Origin: Candidatus Latescibacterota bacterium
GTDB taxonomy: Bacteria > Latescibacterota > UBA2968
Reading direction: 5' to 3'
Assembly (NCBI GenBank): GCA_038279365.1
Contig: JAYODI010000004.1
Location: 92,649-138,739 of the forward strand
Length of the DNA stretch: 46,091 nt
In this document: piece after piece, positions 7,911 to 22,323 of the stretch
How positions within the stretch are numbered: position 1 is the first letter of the stretch
Layout of the letters: each line of letters starts with the position of its first letter
The notes under the pieces: model-generated
Told to the model about the DNA's origin: nothing
Seen by the model: only the letters and a program-made list of their open reading frames with translations
The model's database searches: none
Translations under genes and position numbers: made by a program

Positions 7911-7965
7911 CGGGGCTGGATAACAACAGAAAGTATTGTTGCCCCGTGGGGGCGAGGAGAACGTT

Positions 7966-10542
7966 ATGAATTATGGTTTTTGGAGCCGATTGGTTCAGTT
8001 CGGCTTGGTGGGTGTTGTTGTGGCAATGGTGGGATTAGGTGGGTGTGGGCGAGAACGTGCAAATCCAATAGACCCAGGTTTTCAAGGGAGTGAAGCTTTA
8101 AGTCCTCCAAGCAATATTACTGCTGTTGGAGATATTGGTCAGATACGTTTAACTTGGAATGCAATTAACAGCACCAATTTGGCCGGATATGGTATTTGGC
8201 GTTCAACATCTGCAACAGGGAGTTTTGAACGTTTGGAAGGAGAAGCAGCAGATACAGCGTTTACGACCAGTCGAACCACTTTTGTTGACTCCTCGCTTAA
8301 TGTGACAAGTGCCAAAGTTTATTTTTATAAAATCAATACAACGGATATCGCAGGCCGTTCGAGTGCATTATCGGCTTTTGTAAGTGCAGAAGTGCAAGTA
8401 GATAACAGACCTCCTGCGGCCCCCAGTGATTTGTCTGTGGTTTTAGACGAAGTGTCACAACAAGTGACGCTTTTTTGGACTGCACCCACTGTTGATGTGG
8501 GCAATCAGTTGCTTACGGGTGTTAAAGATTATAAAGTTTTTCGGTCAAAAAATTCAACTGACGCGTTTGTATTGGTTGCAACTTTGTCAGCTGATTCTGG
8601 CGGTACATATACAGACAAAGATCAATTGGATCCAGAAGCCCAATATTTTTACCGAGTCAGTGCCGTTGATGCCAATGGCAATGAAAGTAGTCGGTCGGGT
8701 GTTGCTGGGTTTTCTGGAACAAGTACGGCTATTTTGGCGGCTCCAACGGGGCTTCAAGCTACGGGTGCAATTGGTGAGATTGTTGTGCGTTGGAATTCAG
8801 TAAGTGACCCCAATCTCTTGGGGTATCTGGTGTTGCGTTCTGAAACGACAACTGGAACCTTTGCACCGGTTACAGCCGATACGTTGTTCACCACAGGCCA
8901 GTCTACATACACAGACCAAAATGTTGTACCTGAAAAAGTTTATTATTACAAAGTTCAAGCTGTGGCTCAAGATACCGAGCTGGGTGTTGTACGGAGCGTG
9001 GTTTCTTCTTTTAAAGACGGCCAGTCGTTACAAGACGAAAGACCTCCTGCTGCGCCAACAGACCTGATTGCAAGCTTGAATGACAACAACTTTAGATCTG
9101 TTTCCCTTACCTGGACACCTCCAACACAAGACAGCAATGGGGGGGATATTACGGGGTTGGTTTCTTATCAGGTTTTCAGATCTCGTGAAACCAGCAATTC
9201 ATTTGTGCTATTGGCGACTATTCCTGCCACACAAGCGGTTTATCAAGATACATCTGTTGAGTTTTTGACACGATATTTTTATACCGTAAGTGCTGTTGAT
9301 GGTGCTGGAAATGTTGGGCCAAGATCGTCAGCTGTATCTGTGACAACAAAAGGATTGGCCACACCGGCCAATTTGGTGGCAACAAATGGCGTTCAAAAAA
9401 TCACTCTCACGTGGAATGCCAATACAGAACCTGAATTGACGGGCTATGAGGTGTTGCGCTTTAATGCGCCAACAGACGCAAGCCCCAATGCAACATTTTC
9501 ATCTATTCTGACAACATATGTCGATACGCCTGTCACGGCAGGTCAAACCTTTGTGTATCGTGTGCGTGCTGTGGGTGTGAATAGCTTGCAAAGTGGGCTT
9601 TCAAACTTTGCATCGGCTCAAGCCAATGAAGCTCCCCCAGTTTTGGCCACGCCGCGCAACGTGACAGCAACGGGTAGCATTGGACGAATTACGATATCTT
9701 GGTCGGCAAATACCGAGACCCAGTTGACAGGGTATCGGGTGCTAAAATACACCGATCCATCGCAGACAACTGCTTTGGCGACTTTTTCATCGGTCAAAAC
9801 GACCTTTGTTGATTCCCCACTTGCTCAAGGACAAACATTTGTCTATCGCGTTCAAGCATTGGGTAGTGGTGGGGTAACAAGTGATCTGTCGCTGTTTGCA
9901 TCTGCAACCACACTCATAGATGACAGCGCACCAGCCACACCAAGTCCATTTGCGGCGGTGCTCAATGGTTCAACGACGATCAAGCTCACTTGGAGTGCAC
10001 CGCGCAAAGACAGCAATGGTGGGGATTTGACAGGTTTGTCTGGTTTTGTGATTTACAGAGCTGTTGGAACAGCAAGTGCTGGCCTTACGGCCTTAGCATC
10101 TGTTGATTCTACATTGCGCACATTTGAAAATGGTAGTTTGGAGTTTAATACAACGTACATCTATCAAATATCTGCCATTGATGCCAGTGGCAATGAAAGT
10201 CCTCGATCAAGCAGTGTTACGTTAACAACAGCAACGCAAGGCGCCAGTGTAGCAGCCCCCACAAATGTAACGGCTACCTACAACAGCAATGCCACACCTG
10301 TCAGTGTGACAGTGACGTGGACGCCACCTGCAAGCTTTGATAGTTTCCTCGTTCAACGGGCAACATTATCTGCTGGTTCTTCTACGCCATCGGCATTTAC
10401 CACCTTGGCGTTAGGACAAACGGGTACGAGTTATGTTGATACTTCGATTCAAAGCGGTATCACATATGTTTACCGTATTTCTACAAATTTTTCAGGACAA
10501 ATTAGCGATCCATCTTCTAATTCTGTTATCCCCATTCCATAA
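7966..10542 (+). CDS. Lipoprotein with about 8 tandem fibronectin type III domains
   Basis: GAGGAG RBS; lipobox LGGC followed by RERANPIDP; repeated PxxPxxL..LTW..Y.V.RS..YxY.V.AVDxxGNES motifs. Confidence 0.88.
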   Translation: MNYGFWSRLVQFGLVGVVVAMVGLGGCGRERANPIDPGFQGSEALSPPSNITAVGDIGQIRLTWNAINSTNLAGYGIWRSTSATGSFERLEGEAADTAFTTSRTTFVDSSLNVTSAKVYFYKINTTDIAGRSSALSAFVSAEVQVDNRPPAAPSDLSVVLDEVSQQVTLFWTAPTVDVGNQLLTGVKDYKVFRSKNSTDAFVLVATLSADSGGTYTDKDQLDPEAQYFYRVSAVDANGNESSRSGVAGFSGTSTAILAAPTGLQATGAIGEIVVRWNSVSDPNLLGYLVLRSETTTGTFAPVTADTLFTTGQSTYTDQNVVPEKVYYYKVQAVAQDTELGVVRSVVSSFKDGQSLQDERPPAAPTDLIASLNDNNFRSVSLTWTPPTQDSNGGDITGLVSYQVFRSRETSNSFVLLATIPATQAVYQDTSVEFLTRYFYTVSAVDGAGNVGPRSSAVSVTTKGLATPANLVATNGVQKITLTWNANTEPELTGYEVLRFNAPTDASPNATFSSILTTYVDTPVTAGQTFVYRVRAVGVNSLQSGLSNFASAQANEAPPVLATPRNVTATGSIGRITISWSANTETQLTGYRVLKYTDPSQTTALATFSSVKTTFVDSPLAQGQTFVYRVQALGSGGVTSDLSLFASATTLIDDSAPATPSPFAAVLNGSTTIKLTWSAPRKDSNGGDLTGLSGFVIYRAVGTASAGLTALASVDSTLRTFENGSLEFNTTYIYQISAIDASGNESPRSSSVTLTTATQGASVAAPTNVTATYNSNATPVSVTVTWTPPASFDSFLVQRATLSAGSSTPSAFTTLALGQTGTSYVDTSIQSGITYVYRISTNFSGQISDPSSNSVIPIP

Positions 10543-10560: not shown

Positions 10561-10597
10561 AAACGGTGCCTTACCTTGCGTAAGGCACCGTTTTTTT
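10561..10597 (+). terminator. Rho-independent terminator after the FN3 gene
   Basis: Perfect 14-bp stem AAACGGTGCCTTAC / GTAAGGCACCGTTT, 5-nt loop, then a T run. Confidence 0.88.
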
Positions 10598-10700: not shown

Positions 10701-10716
10701 TGGCATGCCTCTTGCA
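10701..10716 (+). promoter_or_regulatory. sigma54 (-24/-12) promoter
   Basis: TGGCATG-CCTC-TTGCA with GG (10702-3)-N10-GC (10714-5), near consensus TGGCACG-N4-TTGC; AAGGAGG RBS downstream. Confidence 0.8.
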
Positions 10717-10765: not shown

Positions 10766-12094
10766 ATGTGTGATGTTTTATTGATTGGTGATGTTCAAAC
10801 CCTTCAGACATGGTTTGATGGCTGGATAGGGGATGCAACAAATGCTTGGATGCAAGTAGAAACAGTTGGTGATGCATTGTCCATTTGTAACCAGGTAAAG
10901 CCCAAGATTATTTTGGTTGGAGATCACTCTTTAAAAAAAGATTTGCAATTACTAATAAAACAGGCAACCCCATTGTCGCGTGTGGTTATCGTGGGGCATT
11001 TTTTTGATGCAAAGTATTTTCAGTTGGTTTTGGATTGGGGCGCAAATGATTTTTGGGTTATACCCATTGGTGTTGACCAACTGAATCAAAAATTGAGAAG
11101 ATCACGGCTGGCCATAGAGGCGCGCAAGCCCGAGTTAGCGGTGCACAGTCAAAAAGAAGATGAAATGGTTATTGGCACCTCTCAAGATATGGTAACAGCT
11201 TTAAGAATGGCCAGTTTGGTGGCCAAAACCGATACCACCGTACTGATTCGAGGGGAAAGTGGCACAGGTAAAGAACTGTTGGCTCGCGAAATACATCGTT
11301 TGTCAGGGCGCTCTGGGCCATTTATTGCCTTAAATTGTGCGGCGGTTTCAGAAGGTGTGGCCGAAAGTGAGTTATTTGGTCATGAACGCGGTTCATTTAC
11401 TGGGGCCGTATCACAGCGATTGGGTTGTTTTGAACAAGCACATGGTGGCACACTCTTTTTAGATGAAGTGGGTGATGCGCCGATGACATTTCAAGCAAAA
11501 TTATTGCGTGTGTTAGAAAGAAATGAGTTTACCCGCGTTGGAGGGCAACAACTTATTTGTGCCGATGTGCGCATCATCGCCGCAACAAATGGCGATATTG
11601 AAACGCTCATTGAAGCAGGTGACTTTCGGTTGGATTTGCATTATCGCTTGGGTGCCGTGACGGTATTTTTACCCCCGTTGAAAGACCGTAGAGAAGACTT
11701 GCCTGAGATCATTGGAAAGATGGTTGGCAAGTTAAACGAAAAATTACACAAATCGATAAAAGGTGTTTCCAAACAAGCCGTTGAACAACTCTTGGCTTAT
11801 GAGTGGCCCGGAAATCTTCGGGAGTTGTATCAGGTTTTGCATCGGGCTGTGCTGTTATGCAGGCAAGGCGTGATTGAGGCTGAGCATTTGTATGGAATTG
11901 GCGAGGGGAGGCAACAAGAAAATCTGGTGCATATTCAGACATTGTCAGAAATAGAAGAGGCGCATATTGTGCATGTTTTGGATATTGTCGAAGGAAATCG
12001 AGGGCGAGCTTGTGATCTTTTGGGTATCTCTCGTCCTACGCTGAGGCGCAAATTGCGGCAATATGCATTAGAAGTAGATACAGTTCAAGCTTGA
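10766..12094 (+). CDS. sigma54-dependent activator (NtrC/AtoC family; degenerate REC, AAA+, Fis-type HTH)
   Basis: GESGTGKE, ESELFGHERGSFTGA, LFLDEVG, FRLDLHYRL, WPGNLREL, ACDLLGISRPTLRRKL. Confidence 0.93.
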   Translation: MCDVLLIGDVQTLQTWFDGWIGDATNAWMQVETVGDALSICNQVKPKIILVGDHSLKKDLQLLIKQATPLSRVVIVGHFFDAKYFQLVLDWGANDFWVIPIGVDQLNQKLRRSRLAIEARKPELAVHSQKEDEMVIGTSQDMVTALRMASLVAKTDTTVLIRGESGTGKELLAREIHRLSGRSGPFIALNCAAVSEGVAESELFGHERGSFTGAVSQRLGCFEQAHGGTLFLDEVGDAPMTFQAKLLRVLERNEFTRVGGQQLICADVRIIAATNGDIETLIEAGDFRLDLHYRLGAVTVFLPPLKDRREDLPEIIGKMVGKLNEKLHKSIKGVSKQAVEQLLAYEWPGNLRELYQVLHRAVLLCRQGVIEAEHLYGIGEGRQQENLVHIQTLSEIEEAHIVHVLDIVEGNRGRACDLLGISRPTLRRKLRQYALEVDTVQA

Positions 12095-12119: not shown

Positions 12120-12191
12120 ACACTTGTTTACGTATTCATGTTGGCGATAAAAAAAGCAGAGTCATTATTTTGAATGGAAAGGCGTGTACAT

Positions 12192-13355
12192 ATGGGTTAT
12201 TTGATTGATTTGGTCTGTACAAAAACTGGAAAATCTTATACAAAAGATGCCTTGTGGAATTTGAGTGAGGTTGGGGCGCCTTTATTTGCTCGGTATGATT
12301 TGGATGCTGTTCGAAAAAAGGTCAAAAAAGAGGATTTGGCCAGCAGAATACCAACGATGTGGCGCTATGAAGAGGTGATGCCTGTTGAAGATAAGCAATT
12401 TTGTGTCAGTTTGGGAGAAGGGTATACGCCGTTGTTGCAAGCCTCTTCTTTGGGGCGGAAATTAGGTGTGCCGAACCTATTTGTAAAAGAGGAAGGGGTT
12501 AATCCGACGGGTTCTTTCAAAGCCCGAGGGATGTCTGCGGCCATCTCGCGGGCGGCAGAGTTGGGGGCGCGGGCAATTGCAATCCCATCAGCTGGCAATG
12601 CGGGGGGAGCCACAGCGGCCTATGCGGCACGAGCCGGTTTGTCTTCGCATATTTTTATGCCCAAAGATGTTCCTCAAGCCAACTATATTGAGTGTGTGGT
12701 GTTGGGGGCTCAGGTAGAGCTGGTGGATGGTTTGATTTCAGATTGTGGAAAAATTGTGGCCCAACGCAAAGAAGCCGAAGGATGGTTTGATATCTCTACG
12801 CTGAAGGAACCATATCGCGTAGAAGGAAAAAAAACCATGGGTTATGAATTGGCCGAACAGTTTGATTGGGAGTTGCCAGATGTTGTTGTCTATCCAACTG
12901 GTGGTGGCACGGGCCTTATTGGCATGTGGAAAGCGTTTGATGAAATGGAGCAACTGGGTTGGATTGGAAGTAAACGCCCACGTATGGTGTCTGTTCAAGC
13001 CGCTGGGTGTGCACCCATCGTGCGTGCTTACGAATCGGGGGCTTTGTCTGCTGAGCCTTGGCAAAATGCCCAAACCAAAGCATCAGGGCTTCGTGTTCCT
13101 GCTGCTGTCGGTGACTTTTTGATGCTCAATGCCATTCGTGAAAGTCAAGGGTGTGCCGTTTCTGTAACAGATGAAGAGTTAATGGATGGCGTTACTGAAA
13201 TGGCACGTGCTTTGGGCATCTTTCCAGCACCTGAAGGCGGGGCAACTCTGGCGGGGTTAAAAAAGTTAATTGCTCAAAATTGGATACTTGAATCAGATCG
13301 TGTGGTGTTGTTTAATACGGGAACAAGCTTGAAATATCTTGAGCTTTTCCAGTAG
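12192..13355 (+). CDS. thrC: Threonine synthase (fold-type II PLP enzyme)
   Basis: SLGEGYTPL, NPTGSFKARG (PLP lysine), SAGNAG, EGKKTMGYE, PTGGGTG. Alternative start 12174. Confidence 0.88.
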   Translation: MGYLIDLVCTKTGKSYTKDALWNLSEVGAPLFARYDLDAVRKKVKKEDLASRIPTMWRYEEVMPVEDKQFCVSLGEGYTPLLQASSLGRKLGVPNLFVKEEGVNPTGSFKARGMSAAISRAAELGARAIAIPSAGNAGGATAAYAARAGLSSHIFMPKDVPQANYIECVVLGAQVELVDGLISDCGKIVAQRKEAEGWFDISTLKEPYRVEGKKTMGYELAEQFDWELPDVVVYPTGGGTGLIGMWKAFDEMEQLGWIGSKRPRMVSVQAAGCAPIVRAYESGALSAEPWQNAQTKASGLRVPAAVGDFLMLNAIRESQGCAVSVTDEELMDGVTEMARALGIFPAPEGGATLAGLKKLIAQNWILESDRVVLFNTGTSLKYLELFQ

Positions 13356-13369
13356 AATAGGGCTTTTTT

Positions 13370-15031
13370 ATGACACCAAATGAGTTGGTGCGTTTGCTTG
13401 CGCTTATCGGCGCCCATTTGCCTTCTGTTCTGAGTGCTCGGTTCGTAGGGGTGTTGCCAACGGAACTGAAGAACATGGTTTCACTCCAGGTTGAACCGGT
13501 TCGTCACCTGGAACGAGAACAACTGTCTGTGGTTGAGCAAGCGTTGCTAAGCGATTTAGACGCTCTATTTGATGATGAGGGGGCTGCCGAACGTGAAATT
13601 TTGCCTTTGCGTGTTGCCGATGTGATGGCCCTTGTATTGCGCCAAGCCACCATTTCTCGCAGTGCTGATGTGATTCGGCGTTTACCAGACGATTTGCAAA
13701 GTGAAATATTGCATCTTTTGGCTGCGCAGAGTTGGGCTGCTTGGGAGAGACGCTTAGGAACGGGTGAATTGCAAGTGATGGTTGCTCTAAAAGATGCGCT
13801 TGGTTTGCCCCACTTTGAGGTGTCGCCTCAATTTGTGGCAGAAATATTGCACCAAATCCAAACCCCTCAGGACGTGCGTAGAAATTTGACGTATATGTAT
13901 GAAAAAGAACCTGATTCAACGGGTTATATACAAAACTATCTCTATGGTTTTGAATCTCTGGTTAAGTTGCCAGACCGCGAGCTCCAAGTTGTATTGCAAG
14001 GTGTAGACCATTGGGATCTCATATTGGCCATGAGGGCTATACCTGCCAATGTTCGACGTAAAATATTGTCCAATTTATCTCAACGGCGTACAAAGATGTT
14101 TGAAGATGATGAAGCCACACTCGAAAACGTAGACGATGCCCAAGTTGAAATGCTACAACATCAGATATTGGATCGGGCACGGTTGTTATATGAAGCAGGC
14201 CAAATTCATACGTATTTGGGATCTGTGGTCGGGCAAGAAGGGGATGTTGATTTATCTGCGGTGTCTTTAGGTGGTGGGGGAGAGGGAAAGTCATTGGCCG
14301 GACTTGAGAAAAAAAAGGCCCCATCCAAATATGTGGCGGGTTTAATTGCGATTTTGGCAATGATAGGGATGGGATTTGTTTTCGTCAATTGGTTTGGACA
14401 ATCGCAAATATCTATAGATGCCACTAAAAGTGGGAAAGTGTTGGTGTCGGACGAGGTAGAAGACGGGGGTGAGATAACCCGTGATGAAGGCCGTACAGTA
14501 CAACGCATGGGGAAAAATTTGGGCAGTGCTGCAGTTATTTCGGGGCGGGCATTGTTGATGACTGGAGAGTCTGTAAGATCGTTGAATGACTCAGAAATTA
14601 AGATGGGTGATCGCATAAAAACCGATTCAGATGGCAGGGCTTCTGTGGTTTTAACGGGTGATGTGGGGCAGATGCAAGTGGAGCCAGATACAGATGTACA
14701 AGTTGGTCAGGTCGATTCATCAGAACCAGGTGCACCGCAGTTGGATTTGCGCGTGGGCAATATATGGGTAAAGGTAAAAGATCCTGCATTGGAAGTGCGT
14801 TCGCCCCTTGCCCAAATTACGGCCTCAGAAGGCGCGCTTTATCATTTGCGAATTACCTTAAATGCTACCACGACCCTATCTGTTCATGGGGGAACGGTCT
14901 GGATACAAGCTTCAAATGGGGGCGGGTTGCATGTGCTGGGTCTTGGAGAGCGTTTGCGTATTGATCCCGATGGAGATATAGACAGAGACCGGCATGTTGA
15001 AATATCCAAATGGCAAGGCAATGATGAATGA
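13370..15031 (+). CDS. FliG-like domain / transmembrane helix / FecR domain fusion protein
   Basis: aa ~155-280 match FliG_C (VAEIL...EP...LYGFESLVKLPDRELQVVLQGVD..DLILAMR...VRRKILSNLSQRRTKMFEDD...QVEMLQHQIL..AR.LYEAGQI); TM aa 321-342; FecR-like GDRIKTDSDGRASV...LRVGNIWV...VRSPLAQI...LSVHGGTV. Confidence 0.8.
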   Translation: MTPNELVRLLALIGAHLPSVLSARFVGVLPTELKNMVSLQVEPVRHLEREQLSVVEQALLSDLDALFDDEGAAEREILPLRVADVMALVLRQATISRSADVIRRLPDDLQSEILHLLAAQSWAAWERRLGTGELQVMVALKDALGLPHFEVSPQFVAEILHQIQTPQDVRRNLTYMYEKEPDSTGYIQNYLYGFESLVKLPDRELQVVLQGVDHWDLILAMRAIPANVRRKILSNLSQRRTKMFEDDEATLENVDDAQVEMLQHQILDRARLLYEAGQIHTYLGSVVGQEGDVDLSAVSLGGGGEGKSLAGLEKKKAPSKYVAGLIAILAMIGMGFVFVNWFGQSQISIDATKSGKVLVSDEVEDGGEITRDEGRTVQRMGKNLGSAAVISGRALLMTGESVRSLNDSEIKMGDRIKTDSDGRASVVLTGDVGQMQVEPDTDVQVGQVDSSEPGAPQLDLRVGNIWVKVKDPALEVRSPLAQITASEGALYHLRITLNATTTLSVHGGTVWIQASNGGGLHVLGLGERLRIDPDGDIDRDRHVEISKWQGNDE

Positions 15032-15100: not shown

Positions 15101-15535
15101 ATGAAACCCATTTATTCATTATGTTTTTTTGTATCTTTGATTGGTTTTGCTTGGATTTTCCCCGCAGAGGCTGCCAAAGAGACCATATTTGGTCTGGAAA
15201 AAGTGGTTATTACAGGAGTTGATGATCCCAATGCGCGTCCAGAGCGACTGCTTTTGGTATCGGGTAGCTTAAAACTTGTTGGTATGGGGAGAGATGGAAA
15301 CACTTGGCAAACCGTAACTTATATTCCTCAACGGCCAGCCGCACCACGCTCGGACTATGGCACCTTCAAGCGTTTTGGAAACCAGCTTGTTTTTTATTCT
15401 TACATTACATTTCGTCAGTTTGTCGGCACGATTCAACCCGATGGAGAACGGTTGATCGTTGATCGGTATAACGCTCGGGCAGGCAAACGGCAACAAGAGA
15501 CCTGGTATTTGGTGCGAGGTGGACAAAATTTGTAG
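15101..15535 (+). CDS. Secreted beta-rich hypothetical protein
   Basis: AGAGG RBS, signal peptide ending PAEA, 144 aa, alternating beta-strand patterns. Confidence 0.7.
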   Translation: MKPIYSLCFFVSLIGFAWIFPAEAAKETIFGLEKVVITGVDDPNARPERLLLVSGSLKLVGMGRDGNTWQTVTYIPQRPAAPRSDYGTFKRFGNQLVFYSYITFRQFVGTIQPDGERLIVDRYNARAGKRQQETWYLVRGGQNL

Positions 15536-15553: not shown

Positions 15554-15589
15554 AAAAAGAGCCAGCAAATTTATTTGTTGGCTCTTTTT
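15554..15589. terminator. Bidirectional terminator between convergent genes
   Basis: AAAAAGAGCCAGCAAAT-TT-ATTTGTTGGCTCTTTTT hairpin with A and T tails. Confidence 0.8.
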
Positions 15590-16904
15590 ATGTTTTGTCA
15601 ACAATTTCTGCCGCTTGAAAGCCACTGCGTACGGCACTTTCGATTGTTGCGGGCAGTCCGGTATTGACCCAATCACCAGCTAAGAGGAGTTGGGGATGAT
15701 GGGTTTGTGTGTGTGGTGGTATTTGGCCCAATGGAAGGGTTTGGGTTGCGCGATGTTCGCAGATAACGCGTGCGTGTTGTAAAACGGCTTTTTGGGCTTC
15801 TGGCACAACAGATTGAAATTCTTGATGGGCCCATTCTGCGATGTCTTTGTGAGGCATTTGAGCCAATTGGTGTGCAGCGCTGGCAATAAGCGTGATGTGG
15901 CCTTGTGAGGCTTTGTCATGGTTTTGATAAAGAGAGGCTTTGTGAAATGCCCATTCCATTTTTGTACCCAGCATTCCAATGATAGGCTTGTCTAAGGTGG
16001 GGCGATCATACCAGAGATTAACAGAGAGTATGGGGGATGGACGGTAGGAAATAAGAAGGTGTAAAAGGTCTGCAAATGGATCCATGGGCAATATTTTTGC
16101 CAATGCGTGAGGGGGAAGTGCACTGATGATCATGTCGGGTGAATAGATGTGCCCATTGGAGAGGTGTAAACGCACTTTTTGTGGTGATGTTACCTCTAAT
16201 TTTTTGGCATAAACGCCCAATTCGAGTGTTTGGTTGTGCGTAGTGAGATAAGATTTTGCCTGGTCAAATAAGAGGTTGCTCAGGCCCATTCTGGCATATC
16301 CTAAAAGAGAACCATCGGCAGATGAAAAGAAGGCTTCATTAAGAACTGTTTGTAAATGTTGGGCAGGGGCCTGGTGTGGCATTTGGTTTAAGGCCGCCAA
16401 ACACAAAGGATTCCAGAAAACTTCTTGAAGGCGGGTGGTTTGTTTGCATTGGGTGAGCCATTGGGCAACAGACAGATGGGGGGGCAATGTCTTTTTAAGC
16501 TCGGGCTTTAATTTTGCCAATGGCACAATATCTTTCATTGTGACGGCTTTAAAACGCAAAAAACCCACCAGCACGTTGAGTGGGGCTGGGAGGTATTTGG
16601 GAAATCGCAGGGTGGTTGCACCTGTTGATGGGTGGCGATATTCAAGGTGGAATTCGTTTTGAAAGACAATGTTTTCATGGGTGCCTAATGTTTTGAGCAA
16701 ATGCAATGTTGCCCAATAGCATTTCATAAAAAGGTGTTGCCCATTGTCTATGGTATCACCCGTGACGGGGTCGGTAATAGAAAATGCGCGTCCTCCCAAT
16801 ATTTGGCGTCGCTCAATAAGCGTGACCTGATGCCCCAATTCGGTGAGCTTGACGGTTGCGGCTAACCCCGCAAATCCCCCTCCAATGACCACCACACTTT
16901 TCAA
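15588..16904 (-). CDS. hpnE: Hydroxysqualene dehydroxylase (FAD-dependent)
   Basis: VVIGGGFAGLAA, LGGRA, IDNGQHL, EHRAT, LAGDWVNTGLPATIESAVRSG. Start likely TTG 16904 overlapping the hpnD stop (TTGA). Confidence 0.9.
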   Translation of the reverse strand: MKSVVVIGGGFAGLAATVKLTELGHQVTLIERRQILGGRAFSITDPVTGDTIDNGQHLFMKCYWATLHLLKTLGTHENIVFQNEFHLEYRHPSTGATTLRFPKYLPAPLNVLVGFLRFKAVTMKDIVPLAKLKPELKKTLPPHLSVAQWLTQCKQTTRLQEVFWNPLCLAALNQMPHQAPAQHLQTVLNEAFFSSADGSLLGYARMGLSNLLFDQAKSYLTTHNQTLELGVYAKKLEVTSPQKVRLHLSNGHIYSPDMIISALPPHALAKILPMDPFADLLHLLISYRPSPILSVNLWYDRPTLDKPIIGMLGTKMEWAFHKASLYQNHDKASQGHITLIASAAHQLAQMPHKDIAEWAHQEFQSVVPEAQKAVLQHARVICEHRATQTLPLGQIPPHTQTHHPQLLLAGDWVNTGLPATIESAVRSGFQAAEIVDKT

Positions 16905-17761
16905 GGTTGTGACCTTTTTGAATAAAACCAACTGCCCATCCAATATTTGAGTGCAATGCTCAATTTGTGTGGATTTGACAGGCGAATTTTGGAGTCAAAA
17001 ATATTGTAATCGGCTTTTTCGATTTGGGAGAGTAGGCCTGCATATATTTTGCCCATAATTTCTGCGGGAAACATTTTGGGGCGATCTGCTTTTGGCAATA
17101 GACGTGCCGCTTCTTGATAATAATGGTGGGTGCGTGTGGCTTGGAACGTCATCATTTTGACAAATGAGGAATTGTAATGCTGTTGGGCGAGATCTTTTTC
17201 TGTGTATGAAAACGTTTCAAAATCTTCAGCAGGCAAATAAATGCGGTTTTGTAAATAGTCTGTATGTACATCTCGCATGATGTTGGTTAATTGTAGAGCA
17301 AGCCCGAGGTTAATGGCATAGTCTTTGGTTTGGGGATTTGAGTAACCAAAAATCTCAATGCAAATCAGCCCCACAACAGAAGCCACCCGATAGCAATATT
17401 GGTACAGTTCATCAAATGTTTCGTAGCGATTTTTGACCAAATCCATTTCAACCCCATCAATAAGTGCAACGAAATGTTCTTTGGGAATTGCAAAATCTTG
17501 AAGGGTATTTTGTAGATTGATGGCGATGGGGTGGGTCGGAGAGCCGTGATAACAGGCTTGGAGTTCGTTGCGCCAAATATCAATGTCGTGTTTTGCTTGG
17601 TCTTTAGACGGCGCATCGTCAATAATGTCGTCTGTATGGCGGCTAAAGGCATAGGCCGCAAAAATGGCTTCTCTTTTTTTCTTCGGTAAAAAAACAAACG
17701 CATAATAAAAGTTGGTGCGTGCAGCTTTCACCAGTTTTGCTGTGTGTTGTTTGAAATTCAT
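16901..17761 (-). CDS. hpnD: Presqualene diphosphate synthase
   Basis: TNFYYAF, RHTDDIIDD, YCYRVASVVG, LQLTNIMRDV. Start ATG 17761 in a TAATG overlap with hpnC. Confidence 0.9.
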   Translation of the reverse strand: MNFKQHTAKLVKAARTNFYYAFVFLPKKKREAIFAAYAFSRHTDDIIDDAPSKDQAKHDIDIWRNELQACYHGSPTHPIAINLQNTLQDFAIPKEHFVALIDGVEMDLVKNRYETFDELYQYCYRVASVVGLICIEIFGYSNPQTKDYAINLGLALQLTNIMRDVHTDYLQNRIYLPAEDFETFSYTEKDLAQQHYNSSFVKMMTFQATRTHHYYQEAARLLPKADRPKMFPAEIMGKIYAGLLSQIEKADYNIFDSKIRLSNPHKLSIALKYWMGSWFYSKRSQP

Positions 17762-18654
17762 TATGTGCGCCAGTAAAAAGGCCAAAAGGCTTTGTATAAA
17801 ATGTGTGACAGATCGTTTTTTTGCAGCTTGGGGCGGTGATGAAAAATATCAAAATCATTTTGTTGAATTTTGTTCAAAATTTCTCGCCCACCCAACCATG
17901 TTAGGCGCAGTTCATAGCGCAAACGCCCATGCACTTGAGACAGCAATGGTTTGCCACTTTGAAAACATTTTTCAGTATGTTGGATGAGGTGCGTGAGAAG
18001 CGCTTTGAAATGGGGAGTTACTCGTTTTTGTTGTAAATCTTCTTCTGAAACACCAAAGTTTTGCATTTCTGTTTTGGGTAAATAGATGCGGTTTCGCGAA
18101 AAATCTATGGCAATGTCTTGCCAGAAATTGGCCAGTTGTAATGCGGTGCAAATGGCATCTGAGTAGTGGGCAACTTGTGCTGAATGATAACCAAACAAGT
18201 GCAAAATAAGACGGCCAACTGGATTGGCTGAGTAGGTGCAATAATGATGTAATTCATCTAATGTTTCATGACGATCGTGTTCCACATCCATCAAAAATGC
18301 GGTGAGCAAATCTTTTAATAATTGGATGGGAATTTGTTGGGTATGTATGGTGTGTGCCAGTGCGGTAAAAATAGGGCCATCTGGGCTTTTGTGGCAGGTA
18401 TCCAATTTGTCTTTCCAGTTTTTGAGCTGAGCAAGTCGCTCTGGCTTGGATAGGCCAGGTTCATCGGCAATGTCATCTGCAGTTCTGGCAAAGGCATAAA
18501 TGGCGTGAACGTGGGGGCGCACCTGTTTGGGAATGAGTAAAGAACCCACAGGGAAGTTCTCATAATGGGCCTTGGTGAGGTTGGCACAATGGGCATAGGC
18601 CTCTGAAAGCAGAATGGGGTTGGGGGCAGGGGGAGTGTTTACATTTTTTCTCAT
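17761..18654 (-). CDS. hpnC: Squalene synthase HpnC (hydroxysqualene synthase)
   Basis: HYENFPVGS, YAFARTADDIADE, SANPVGRL, SDAICTALQLANFWQD. Confidence 0.92.
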   Translation of the reverse strand: MRKNVNTPPAPNPILLSEAYAHCANLTKAHYENFPVGSLLIPKQVRPHVHAIYAFARTADDIADEPGLSKPERLAQLKNWKDKLDTCHKSPDGPIFTALAHTIHTQQIPIQLLKDLLTAFLMDVEHDRHETLDELHHYCTYSANPVGRLILHLFGYHSAQVAHYSDAICTALQLANFWQDIAIDFSRNRIYLPKTEMQNFGVSEEDLQQKRVTPHFKALLTHLIQHTEKCFQSGKPLLSQVHGRLRYELRLTWLGGREILNKIQQNDFDIFHHRPKLQKNDLSHILYKAFWPFYWRT

Positions 18655-19863: not shown

Positions 19864-20898
19864 TTATTTGTATTTGGCTTTCAGTGTTTTGCCTTGTTCG
19901 GCACTGCGACAGGCCAAATCGAGAATGTGGATGGGGCGCCTGGACCATTCGGGGGTAATGATGAGGTCTTCCTCTTTGGCCAAGTGATTGGCAATATTAC
20001 CATAATACTTGGGATACTGACTGGGTGGGTTTTCGCCCGTAGTGACCACCTTGCGGTTGCCTTTCATTTGAATGATCTCATACGTTCGTCCATCAAAAAT
20101 GTAAGACCCTTCTGTGCCTGTAATTTCAAGCCAACCTTTTTTTGCATTAGAAGCCATGCTGGACATCGTTAAGTTGATCCAACCGCCATTGGCAAATCGC
20201 ACAATTGCCGAGGCTTCATCTTCGTTGGTATCTTTTTTCCAGGCCGTTTTTTGTGCCCACAAACCATTGTGTGCAAAACCAGTGACTTCAGATATGTCAG
20301 ACTTTAAGAGTTGAAGAGAATATTCAAGCAGGTGAACGCCCCAATCGTAAAGAATGCCGCCAGATATAGACTTGCTGCTTCGCCACCAATCGCCGGGTTT
20401 GCCATATCCACCCATGTGTGCTTCTATGCGATAGATGTCTCCAATGACTTTGCGTTTGTGGATGTTTTTGAGGGCTTCAAGCACACAGCCGTCCCAATGG
20501 CGGTTGTGGTACGTGGATAGCAGAAGTTTTCGCTTTTTTGCTTCGCGAATCATGGCGTCACACTCGGCCGTGGTAATGGCTAAGGGTTTTTCACTAATGA
20601 CATGTCGTCCTGCGCGCAGGCATTGTAGGGCTATTTGAGCATGGGTGTTGTGTGGTGTGATGATGACGACCAAGTTGACATCGGATTCTTGGAGCATCTT
20701 GTCAACCGTGTTGTAGGTTTGGATGCCAGGAAATTCTTCTTCGGCAACTTTGAGGCGCGAAGGATCTATTTCTGAAACTGCAACAGGTGTCATGCCTGCG
20801 CGCTTCATAAAGGTGAGGTGTTGGCGGCCCATATTAAAGGCACCGCCATATCCAATAACGCCTACTTTGATCGCACGTGCATTTTTAAATTGTGGCAT
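19864..20898 (-). CDS. Gfo/Idh/MocA family oxidoreductase
   Basis: VGVIGYG, TPHNTH, HVISEKP, YHNRHWD, GGILYDWGVH. Confidence 0.92.
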   Translation of the reverse strand: MPQFKNARAIKVGVIGYGGAFNMGRQHLTFMKRAGMTPVAVSEIDPSRLKVAEEEFPGIQTYNTVDKMLQESDVNLVVIITPHNTHAQIALQCLRAGRHVISEKPLAITTAECDAMIREAKKRKLLLSTYHNRHWDGCVLEALKNIHKRKVIGDIYRIEAHMGGYGKPGDWWRSSKSISGGILYDWGVHLLEYSLQLLKSDISEVTGFAHNGLWAQKTAWKKDTNEDEASAIVRFANGGWINLTMSSMASNAKKGWLEITGTEGSYIFDGRTYEIIQMKGNRKVVTTGENPPSQYPKYYGNIANHLAKEEDLIITPEWSRRPIHILDLACRSAEQGKTLKAKYK

Positions 20899-20952
20899 AG
20901 CATTTCCTTTTTGAGTGAGAAGAATGGAATAACGGTTTTTGGAGTGGGCGCA

Positions 20953-22323
20953 TTATTGTCCCAATCCAGCATCTTTGAAAATTTGTTCATGTTCATTGGC
21001 CAAAAGATTGAGTGCCTCTTGAGGGGGGCGCACATTGTCAATGGCTTCACCTAAATACCGTTGGGAGACAGCCAACAGTTCATTGTAAACGGGGACGTTC
21101 CAAAAGTCTTGCACATAGTCGAGTGATTCAGCAAATGGAGCATTATAGGGTGTGGCGTTTTTAAAGGCTTCACTTTTTAAGATATCGGTGTTGGCCGTGA
21201 ATCCGGCATCTTTGGTGATCCATTCCTTTTGAATATTGTTTTGCAAAAACCAGGCAATAAATTTTTTGGATAATTCTTGTTGCTCTTTGGACACTTTGGT
21301 TGAAATGCTAAATCCTTGACCGCCCAAACTAATTGCTCTGCGGTTTTGAGTAGATATTTTGACCGGTTTGCCACCTATGGTCATCATTTCGTTTGCTTTT
21401 ATTTGGGGCACCATAAAAAATCCTGCTTTATCGCCCATTTGTTTTACGATGCCGGGAAAAAATGCAAAATAATTCATACTCATGGCTGTAGAGCCATTTA
21501 TAAATGCTTCGTAGGTTTTGCCATAATCAAAATTGGAAGCCCCGTTTGGTGACAGCGCAATGAGGCTTTTAAAGAATTCGACACCCGCAGCCACTTCAGG
21601 TTTGTTGACATGGCCCTGAACTTGAAATGTGTTGCTGTTTCCCCAAGTGCCACCAAACCCCCACATAAACATTTGGAACCCCATGGTGAGCGAGTCGTAA
21701 CCGCGGCCTGTTAACAGGGCGCATCCGTATTGTTTGTCGTTTGGTCGATAAAAGAATTCGGCAATTTCTTTAAACTCTTTCCAGGTGTTGGGTGTGGTGA
21801 GATCTCGGCCATATTTTTGTTTAAAGGCCGATTTTTCTTGTTCATTTTCAAACCAATCTTTGCGATAAACAAACCCAACGGCATCTGTTTCACAAGGTGC
21901 TGCATAAAATTTCCCACTGTCTGGAGGATATTCACAAAGGTATTTGGCGGCACGTGGGTGGATTTTACTCATATCTGTTGCCGATGGCAACCAGTCTGTC
22001 AACTCAACGTAAAGCCCACGTGTGGCGCCTCGGCCAATCCACTGGCTGTCGCCTATTACCATGTCAAAATCGGTGACCTGGTTGCCAAAGTTTAGAAACA
22101 CTTGATCTTGGTAAGACGACCACGGAATTTGATGCACTTTGACGGCAATTCCGGTTTCTTTTTCAAATTGGTTGCCTAACTCTTGAAGGCCTACGGCAGG
22201 ATCCCATTGTGCCCACCAAATGGTAATGGCTTTTTTGTTATCTGATTGTGGAGATTGTGTACCACAACCCAGTGTGACAATGAAAAAGCTTATGCAAAAC
22301 ATAAGCTTAAGCAGATATTTCAT
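20953..22323 (-). CDS. ABC transporter sugar-binding lipoprotein (SBP family 1)
   Basis: Lipobox TLGC; FEKETGI.V, YRKDWF, P.TW.EF..IAEFF, LGGQG. No permease adjacent. Confidence 0.88.
   Translation of the reverse strand: MKYLLKLMFCISFFIVTLGCGTQSPQSDNKKAITIWWAQWDPAVGLQELGNQFEKETGIAVKVHQIPWSSYQDQVFLNFGNQVTDFDMVIGDSQWIGRGATRGLYVELTDWLPSATDMSKIHPRAAKYLCEYPPDSGKFYAAPCETDAVGFVYRKDWFENEQEKSAFKQKYGRDLTTPNTWKEFKEIAEFFYRPNDKQYGCALLTGRGYDSLTMGFQMFMWGFGGTWGNSNTFQVQGHVNKPEVAAGVEFFKSLIALSPNGASNFDYGKTYEAFINGSTAMSMNYFAFFPGIVKQMGDKAGFFMVPQIKANEMMTIGGKPVKISTQNRRAISLGGQGFSISTKVSKEQQELSKKFIAWFLQNNIQKEWITKDAGFTANTDILKSEAFKNATPYNAPFAESLDYVQDFWNVPVYNELLAVSQRYLGEAIDNVRPPQEALNLLANEHEQIFKDAGLGQ

Follow-up and report, generated by a model that had tools for sequence, protein, structure and literature searches.

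Why should the core of the flagellar rotor protein FliG be joined, through a single transmembrane (TM) helix, to a FecR-type domain of the kind found in envelope signalling, in a gene that has no flagellar neighbours? The question is raised by a 46,091-nucleotide (nt) stretch of DNA from a Candidatus Latescibacterota bacterium (assembly GCA_038279365.1, contig JAYODI010000004.1, positions 92,649 to 138,739; hereafter the window), in which one gene encodes such a FliG-FecR protein (the target; feature coordinates are collected in Table 1). A reading made from the sequence alone had described this gene as an orphan FliG fold fused to a FecR domain and as a candidate trans-envelope transducer, with an architecture that it did not recognise from characterised proteins. 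That architecture is genuine, is conserved among relatives and is undescribed: no account of a FliG-FecR fusion, or of a FliG that is anchored in the membrane and bears a FecR domain, was found in the literature searched, as judged from titles and the beginnings of abstracts. According to its structural model, the target, which belongs to flagellated Latescibacterota, crosses the inner membrane once, with FliG inside and a FecR/CJM domain outside. Its function is read here, tentatively, as accessory to the flagellar motor, which it would regulate, or to which it would relay a signal, through a contact of the FliG_C-MotA type.

The FliG identity of the cytoplasmic part is carried by both profile and fold comparisons. 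The target matches Pfam FliG_C at 78.9 bits against a cut-off of 23.3, and FliG_M marginally on its own sequence (25.4 versus 25 bits), while residues 85-280 align with positions 134-327 of the NCBIfam fliG equivalog TIGR00207 at 74.1 bits, below the cut-off of 226.7. A per-member Pfam scan of 19 aligned relatives detected FliG_C in all 19, FliG_M in 18, DUF2917 in ten and FecR in eight. Positions 88-281 of the family profile match the FliG-MC structure of T. maritima (3ajc), and its first 60 positions match the isolated FliG_M chains 4qrm_B and 3soh_B at about 4e-4, which together point to two FliG_M-like repeats, as the sequence-only reading had claimed. An AlphaFold2 (AF2) model of the target, built on the alignment of the 19 relatives (pLDDT 72 overall), was compared with solved folds by Foldseek and VIA-align. 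Its helical part matches FliG chains 4fhr_B (Z 16.2) and 1qc7_B (Z 15.2, root-mean-square deviation (rmsd) 1.2 over 89 residues), and its FliG_C domain matches FliG as solved in complex with MotAB (8ucs_H) with Z 14.6 and rmsd 1.3. A very unlikely alternative is that the fold is a generic helical scaffold of the ARM/MgtE-N kind, for example a ligand or ion sensor, unrelated to the motor. It could draw on an MgtE_N match in the target (1.7e-4, 22.5 bits, below the cut-off of 25.9), on the Z scores of 7-8 given by MgtE cytoplasmic domains, and on the lack of flagellar neighbours; however, the MgtE_N match lies beneath a far stronger FliG_C match (Pfam 4e-22 versus 2e-4), solved FliG structures reach Z 15-16, the stator-face residues are conserved, and most of the genomes that carry the family also carry FliF (see below).

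In flagellar FliG, charged residues of the torque helix contact MotA, the FliG_N domain docks on the FliF C-terminus, and the EHPQR motif binds FliM. We take the MotA-facing torque-helix residues of E. coli FliG to be R281, D288, D289 and R297, the last of which would correspond to target position 255. Among the 19 aligned family members, R239 and R240 are invariant (19/19 each), all 19 have an acidic residue at position 246 and 18 have D247, and by these residues the stator-contact face of FliG_C appears to be kept. The features used for ring building appear, by contrast, to be gone. FliG_N (PF14842) was not detected on the target at E values up to 1 by a Pfam scan that detects it, with values of 1e-26 to 1e-37, in five FliGs of canonical type from the same genome. 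In an alignment of the target with these five proteins, their KEHPQT is replaced in the target family by LRVAD and a three-residue gap, their GG linker is absent from the target, and LYGF stands in place of the canonical MFVF. EHPQR is named as a FliG motif in the abstract of PMC6290876.

The remainder of the polypeptide is divided by the AF2 model into a disordered segment (residues 287-325) that follows helices 3-275, a helix at 321-342, a second disordered segment (342-387), and strands at 388-541. The Gly-rich linker, the KKK motif and the one TM helix of the sequence-only reading are borne out. Lysines ahead of a TM helix fit a cytoplasmic N-terminal side under the positive-inside rule, and the topology is predicted to be single-pass with a cytoplasmic N-terminus. 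Regional conservation in the 19-relative alignment is highest in FliG_C (0.72), followed by the beta-domain (0.66), and drops to 0.34-0.40 in the TM helix and the tethers (0.35 for the cytoplasmic and 0.34 for the periplasmic tether). A chimeric assembly, or two genes run together, is ruled out by 19 full-length relatives, by the frame lengths of 510-624 residues in most matches within the phylum, and by an independent 2362-nt contig, from a run of a different study than the likely source, which spans positions 12626-14987 with 7 mismatches and 0 gaps and thereby connects the thrC-like gene with FliG, the TM helix and the beta-domain. Public runs contain the target stretch in 20 rows, spread over 14 studies of estuary, marine and marsh metagenomes. 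Four exact 151-nt contigs within the gene, from two metatranscriptome libraries (8 and 4 of 30 bins covered), are a weak hint of expression, as such libraries can hold DNA.

The periplasmic half had been called FecR-type, an assignment that holds by fold and in relatives, and not by Pfam on the target's own sequence. Pfam FecR is not matched by the target itself; it is matched by the eight of 19 close relatives mentioned above (best 8.9e-7) and by 6 of 28 distant representatives. The beta part of the model matches the periplasmic domain of PupR (6ovk_R) with Z 14.1 and rmsd 3.0 over 134 aligned residues (model 383-551 on PupR 111-251), and BDI_1681, an anti-sigma factor of Parabacteroides (4m0n), with Z 13.9. 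According to PMC7186176, the periplasmic region of PupR consists of a CJM subdomain (110-238) and an STN subdomain (250-324), neither of which alone binds the transducer signalling domain, both being required. Because the target stops at the equivalent of PupR 251, where STN starts, it would possess a CJM-type domain only. In the target genome (98.5% complete, 7.4% contamination), STN (PF07660) and Pfam FecR each gave 0 matches. No anti-sigma family is found among the Pfam matches of the target, whose whole cytoplasmic part is FliG-like. The claim that a FliG module occupies the place of the anti-sigma domain, followed by a TM helix and a FecR-type domain, is upheld as anatomy, the overall layout being that of PupR.

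A classical FecR relay from a TonB-dependent transducer is rejected, as STN was detected in neither protein nor genome, and no extracytoplasmic function (ECF) sigma or TonB-dependent transducer gene lies beside the target in the window or at the other loci examined. The related proposal of a non-flagellar motor of the MotA/ExbB/TolQ type, coupled via FliG to an outer-membrane TonB-dependent receptor, is highly improbable. In its favour are the retained torque-helix charges, 13 receptor barrel matches in about 12 frames of the genome, its ExbB-ExbD-TonB sets, and two weakly MotA-like genes. However, besides the missing STN, the ExbB and receptor genes lie outside the conserved neighbourhood (the ExbB-ExbD-TonB genes of the window are 14 kb upstream of the target), and the family tracks flagella and not TonB systems, being absent from the non-flagellated genera g6 and g10; we also know of no FliG-binding cytoplasmic domain in ExbB-type proteins. 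Of what the sequence-only reading had suggested here, a link to a MotA-type motor is compatible with the conserved torque-helix charges, nothing points to an ExbB/TolQ-type partner, and the link to TonB-dependent-receptor signalling is not upheld. One of the two MotA-like genes lies on contig C127 (L013:1414-3217), ahead of a gene for an OmpA-like protein. Its 427-residue product matches MotA_ExbB weakly and has a long tail of coiled-coil-like character; the two proteins may be a non-flagellar stator-type pair, with a possible resemblance to ZorAB of Zorya. The other, on C160, encodes 276 residues and likewise matches MotA_ExbB weakly.

Relatives of the target form a defined family. A word-indexed search returned 22 relatives with 33-83% identity, of which 20 have 510-564 residues and two are shorter records (312 and 419 residues), the remainder of its 56 matches being ordinary FliGs; the family alignment of 19 excludes P0005, P0011 and P0012 (a near-duplicate and two partial sequences). 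An exhaustive search of representatives gave 1701 matches at E values up to 1e-3, including about 20 further clusters (470-610 residues, 25-36% identity) that align over both halves, and a shorter form of about 370 residues (FliG_C-TM-FecR). FliG_C was detected in all 28 distant representatives scanned, and most matches within the phylum have open frames of 510-624 residues. A scan of species representatives gave three loci and one of metagenome contigs gave two; no longer fused forms were found, in a search that counts as weak evidence. Databases label the relatives 'hypothetical protein', 'FecR domain-containing protein', 'flagellar motor switch protein FliG' or 'PulM'. In a quick tree of 59 FliG_C domains (100 columns), 22 long members and two short forms fall on one side of a branch with an SH-aLRT value of 95, and 5 of 7 short forms group with the FliG_C-MotA proteins described below. 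A single clade of all FecR-bearing forms is not rejected by the approximately unbiased test (p 0.40, for a group chosen after inspection of the tree), and independent origins of the short and long forms are not established.

The distribution of the family follows that of flagella. In a survey of 168 Latescibacterota genomes, in which the family was scored by its specific beta-domain and flagella by FliF, the family was found in 35 and FliF in 64. FliF is present in 31 of the 35 family-positive genomes as against 33 of the 133 family-negative ones, with a naive Fisher p of 5e-12 that exaggerates the link, since kin do not count as independent observations. Within genus g25, the family occurs in 3 of 5 FliF-positive and 0 of 26 FliF-negative genomes, and neither family nor FliF is found in genus g6, many of whose 21 genomes are closed, or in the 15 genomes of g10. 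It was detected only in families f1-f4, which belong to one class, and not in f10, though 10 of 13 f10 genomes have FliF. The label 'orphan' is therefore not sustained: from these gene contents, the target appears to be an accessory gene of flagellated lineages, and the genome check called for by the sequence-only reading found fliF, fliM and motAB all present.

The target genome uses FliG in an unconventional manner. It has eight FliG_C matches and one FliF, and its flagellar cluster (contig C14, L061) reads fliE-fliF-fliH-fliI-fliJ, then fliK, flgD, flgE, motA, two motB and fliN, with no fliG after fliF; fliM is also present in the genome. Four complete FliG N-M-C genes are scattered at non-flagellar loci (contigs C31, C194, C118 and C26), where their neighbours include, between them, an ankyrin-repeat gene, an ECF sigma and response regulators. 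A fifth FliG N-M-C is fused behind an FGE-sulfatase (sulfatase-maturase-like) domain in a 685-residue protein (C191:4132-6189 (-); L059:4135-6189), whose gene adjoins fliN, fliM, fliN, fliN and a further FliG_C gene that runs off the contig. Within the phylum, a single genome can have as many as 16 matches of the FliG_C type. In f10, FliF and a FliG_C match lie about 2 kb apart, so that the relocation of fliG seems specific to one class. These observations bear on the possibility that the target is a structural part of the rotor or basal body, an anchored FliG paralogue that would stack into the FliG ring, turn with the MS ring and display its periplasmic domain. The missing fliG between fliF and fliH, the four scattered complete FliGs and the fusions would suit such a part, as would the retained FliG_M and FliG_C folds and the co-occurrence with flagella, and the ring assembly reported for FliF-FliG fusions (8z4d; PMC6079021) leaves a rotor role open to a membrane-tethered FliG. 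However, without FliG_N and EHPQ, docking to FliF or FliM in the known mode would be impossible, only 31 of 64 FliF-positive genomes have the family, and the long, poorly conserved, disordered tethers resemble a flexible leash more than a fixed structural element; a structural role is distinctly unlikely.

FliG_C is also found together with its stator counterpart. A 421-residue protein of the target genome (C48:29548-30813 (-); L060:6593-7855) combines ECF sigma regions 2 and 4, FliG_C and a homologue of the MotA cytoplasmic domain, its last approximately 130 residues matching the genome's own MotA at 2e-11 (BLASTP) and MotA chains of the PDB at about 8e-6 (8ucs_C 7.7e-6). As judged from these matches, it would in effect be a sigma factor in which the rotor side and the stator side of the contact are combined. 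This fusion was seen in genus g1 only; elsewhere, the FliG_C and MotA cytoplasmic module stands alone without sigma domains (221-432 residues, 9/9 scanned). In genome G161, the gene for one such protein and the target homologue lie about 5 kb apart. The direct fusion of FliG_C to a MotA cytoplasmic-domain homologue argues that this pairing is used outside the rotor. A broader proposal, which we regard as doubtful, is that the rotor-stator contact has been turned into a portable signalling plug-and-socket in one Latescibacterota class, with FliG_C copies joined to TM helix and FecR, to ECF sigma, to a sulfatase-maturase domain or to a soluble MotA cytoplasmic domain. A ligand signal, received via a lipocalin-like partner (see below) and FecR, would then engage or release MotA-type surfaces, such that stators are braked or recruited, or regulators with matching domains are freed. 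The ECF sigma fusion was also considered as an obligate partner of the target; this is weakened by its restriction to one genus and by the absence of the soluble module, among the matches listed, from several family-positive genera.

The target belongs to a four-gene row flanked by terminator-like hairpins (10561-10593 and 15554-15589). As claimed by the sequence-only reading, it starts 14 nt after the stop codon of a thrC-like gene (at 13355), with no flagellar gene adjacent at the loci examined; no strong terminator was found between the two genes, which probably share a transcript. The order in f1/f2 is sigma-54 activator, thrC-like gene, target and one or more small open reading frames (ORFs), followed by convergent squalene/phytoene-synthase-type and amine-oxidase genes, which we take to be hopanoid 'hpn' genes. 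The Pfam scan of neighbourhoods covered the window and locus L044, other loci being judged from ORF size; ORFs sized like the PALP gene are found in L043 and L045-L050. The small ORF after the target encodes a protein of 132-144 residues with a signal peptide, 48-80% identical to that of the window across 8 loci. This partner is found in 12 of the 168 genomes, always directly adjoining the target homologue; the other two family-positive genomes of f1/f2 have the target at the end of a contig. The same pair is found on metagenome contig L078, with 71% identity for the partner and 44% for the target. The partner matches no Pfam or NCBIfam family, its model has a pLDDT of 60 with a lipocalin-family chain as best fold match (4gzv_H, E 5e-4), and a protein-atlas search gave leads only (scores up to 0.90).

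Table 1. Coordinates of the target, its domains, the gene row, and related FliG_C proteins at other loci
Feature	Position	Strand	Basis or remark
Target gene, FliG-FecR protein	13370..15031	+	ORF with ATG start, 553 residues
FliG_M-like first ARM repeat (not FliG_N), residues 4-66	13379..13567	+	Pfam FliG_M 1.7e-5, profile positions 10-72
FliG_M-equivalent domain, residues 85-150	13622..13819	+	TIGR00207 alignment; family profile versus 3ajc 5e-31
FliG_C domain, residues 177-279	13898..14206	+	Pfam PF01706 4.3e-22; fold matches
Torque-helix equivalent (S-Q-R-R...E-D-D), residues 237-251	14078..14122	+	aligned to SER...KEE of canonical FliGs
Gly-rich disordered cytoplasmic tether ending in KKK, residues 287-320	14228..14329	+	pLDDT <50 over 287-325
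Single TM helix, residues 321-342	14330..14395	+	model helix; hydrophobic stretch in all aligned members
Disordered periplasmic tether, residues 343-387	14396..14530	+	pLDDT <50 over 342-387
FecR/CJM-type beta-solenoid without STN subdomain, residues 388-541	14531..14992	+	model, PupR fold match
Sigma-54 activator (enhancer-binding protein, EBP), head of row	10766..12094	+	Pfam Sigma54_activat 3e-63 and HTH_8; upstream also in L044
PALP/threonine-synthase-like (thrC-like) gene	12174..13355	+	Pfam PALP 3.3e-74; L044 PALP 3e-77, same order
Partner gene, 144-residue secreted protein, candidate lipocalin-like beta-barrel	15101..15535	+	low-confidence model
Terminator-like hairpin, 16-bp stem, after small ORF	15554..15589	+	
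Stand-alone FliG_C and MotA cytoplasmic-domain-like proteins	L065, L067, L068, L070-L074, L048:3017-4297		often several per genome

Several further observations concern the row and its surroundings. A second small ORF (127-165 residues as called) follows the lipocalin-like gene in 6 of 8 loci (L044:10689-11075, L045-L047, L049 and L050), and encodes a protein with no signal peptide and no Pfam or NCBIfam family. This ORF (about 129 residues) was dropped as a candidate partner, being absent from the window and L043 and not found in the target genome. The sequence TGGCAT-N5-TTGC at 10701-10715 (+), about 50 nt before the EBP gene, is one mismatch from the sigma-54 core; a sigma-54 promoter scan of the window gave 79 matches versus 68 +/- 9 expected, which is chance level. 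Upstream of the row lies a gene for an 868-residue protein (7936-10542 (+)) that has an N-terminal membrane/signal segment and seven or more fibronectin type III repeats, and ORFs of 868 and 862 residues are likewise upstream in L043 and L046. GC skew is +0.15 to +0.28 in 21 of the 23 2-kb windows of the stretch (1-46091), +0.07 at 8001-10000 and +0.04 at 20001-22000, and is positive also across the minus-strand genes at 15588-18654.

A different context is found in f4, where in 4 of 4 genomes (G105, G112, G097 and G161) a FadB-like gene, sometimes HpaB, the family member and then a sigma factor gene are found. The sigma factor (281-309 residues, regions 1.2 to 4) adjoins the family member or lies one gene from it (L051, L052, L054 and L048), and its best NCBIfam similarity is to RpoD/RpoS, below cut-off. 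This context favours a further explanation, by which the FliG module would act like an anti-sigma domain, keeping a transcription regulator bound at the membrane for as long as no signal reaches the FecR-type domain. Its client would be the ECF sigma-FliG_C-MotA fusion in the genus of the target, a natural ligand for a FliG module, and possibly the neighbouring RpoS/RpoD-like sigma in f4. The layout of cytoplasmic adaptor, TM helix and FecR/CJM domain, as in PupR, agrees with such sequestration, and a sigma-54 activator heads the row in f1/f2. However, no anti-sigma domain is detected by Pfam, the ECF fusion is confined to genus g1 with stand-alone modules elsewhere, and several family-positive genera have, among the matches listed, only an ordinary MotA of about 260 residues. 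Moreover, the f4-type sigma has at least 11 paralogues in the target genome, all encoded away from the target, and an ECF sigma is adjacent at no locus, the nearest in the window being 12.5 kb off. Sequestration is thus unlikely.

In the accessory-regulator reading preferred here, the diverged FliG module would be held close beneath the membrane by a tether of about 35 residues, with the FecR/CJM beta-solenoid on a periplasmic tether of about 45 residues. Its FliG_C face would bind a MotA-type cytoplasmic domain, either that of the flagellar stator or, in some genomes, that of a soluble MotA-type protein, and the loss of FliG_N and EHPQ suggests the role of a tethered decoy or adaptor and not that of a rotor subunit. 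The adjacency to the secreted protein in 12 of 12 genomes argues for periplasmic input, so that the lipocalin-like protein and the periplasmic domain may together supply an envelope or ligand signal, which would alter the availability of the FliG module via conformational or tethering effects. The output would be competition or tethering at the rotor-stator interface. Alternatively, regulated proteolysis might free the cytoplasmic FliG module, as in FecR-type regulators, for which this output route is described in PMC7186176; the same paper calls the Gly-Thr self-cleavage residues of FoxR-type regulators non-conserved.

Several points weigh against a role at the motor. Position 255, where canonical FliG has the Arg of GPVR, is acidic in all 19 aligned members, which suggests an altered stator surface and a partner that is possibly not ordinary MotA. 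Neither motAB nor another flagellar gene is adjacent to the target at any locus examined, and soluble proteins with a MotA cytoplasmic domain are found, among the matches listed, in no more than about half of the genomes that carry the family. Four of the 35 family-positive genomes have no FliF match (G063, G099, G160 and G161; 76-92% complete), and the presence of the family in only 31 of 64 FliF-positive genomes makes it dispensable for flagella. Shared ancestry within one class could also contribute to the co-occurrence.

FliG is usually treated as a dedicated, soluble rotor part, and a tethered family of this kind would widen the known ways in which the rotor-stator contact is controlled or exploited. 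The eight FliG_C genes, the lack of fliG in the fliF operon and the ECF sigma-FliG_C-MotA protein suggest a lineage in which motor parts have been recruited for regulation. The occurrence of a FecR/CJM domain without STN and anti-sigma domains likewise bears on how a widespread sensor domain transmits its signal.

Among known proteins, YcgR, MotI, EpsE and the stator-associated, single-pass FliL act at the rotor-stator interface, the same working mode as is proposed for the target. To our knowledge, these proteins (PilZ, glycosyltransferase or SPFH-type) are unrelated to it in sequence or fold, and none has a FliG copy or a FecR domain. The MgtE N-terminal domain is a distant FliG-fold relative on a membrane protein, which differs from the target in its membrane part and function. 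The closest comparison for the cytoplasmic half is FliG itself (TIGR00207; PDB 4fhr, 3hjl and 8ucs), which the target resembles in its FliG_M and FliG_C folds (Z about 16; rmsd 1.2-1.3 Å for FliG_C), in the torque-helix Arg and acidic pair, and in its occurrence in flagellated genomes. By contrast with the soluble FliG, the target would be membrane-anchored with a periplasmic domain, has a second FliG_M-like repeat in place of FliG_N, is without the EHPQ motif and Gly-Gly linker, carries an acidic residue for the last stator-face Arg, and scores 74 versus 227 bits against the equivalog. With FliG_N and EHPQ missing, a sub-threshold equivalog score and a predicted membrane location, it would not be classed as FliG proper. 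Nor would it be classed as a FecR-type sigma regulator, lacking as it does the anti-sigma domain, STN, and sigma or transducer neighbours. FecR/PupR regulators (6ovk; PMC7186176) share its topology of cytoplasmic module, one TM helix and CJM/FecR beta-solenoid; they differ in having an anti-sigma domain where the target has FliG, in the STN subdomain, in the adjacent ECF sigma and TonB-dependent transducer, and in a far shorter periplasmic tether. In FliF-FliG fusions (PDB 8z4d; PMC6079021), FliG is likewise covalently joined to a membrane-embedded partner, there standing behind a whole MS-ring protein with its rotor contacts kept, whereas in the target it is joined to one TM helix and a FecR-type domain with those contacts apparently lost.

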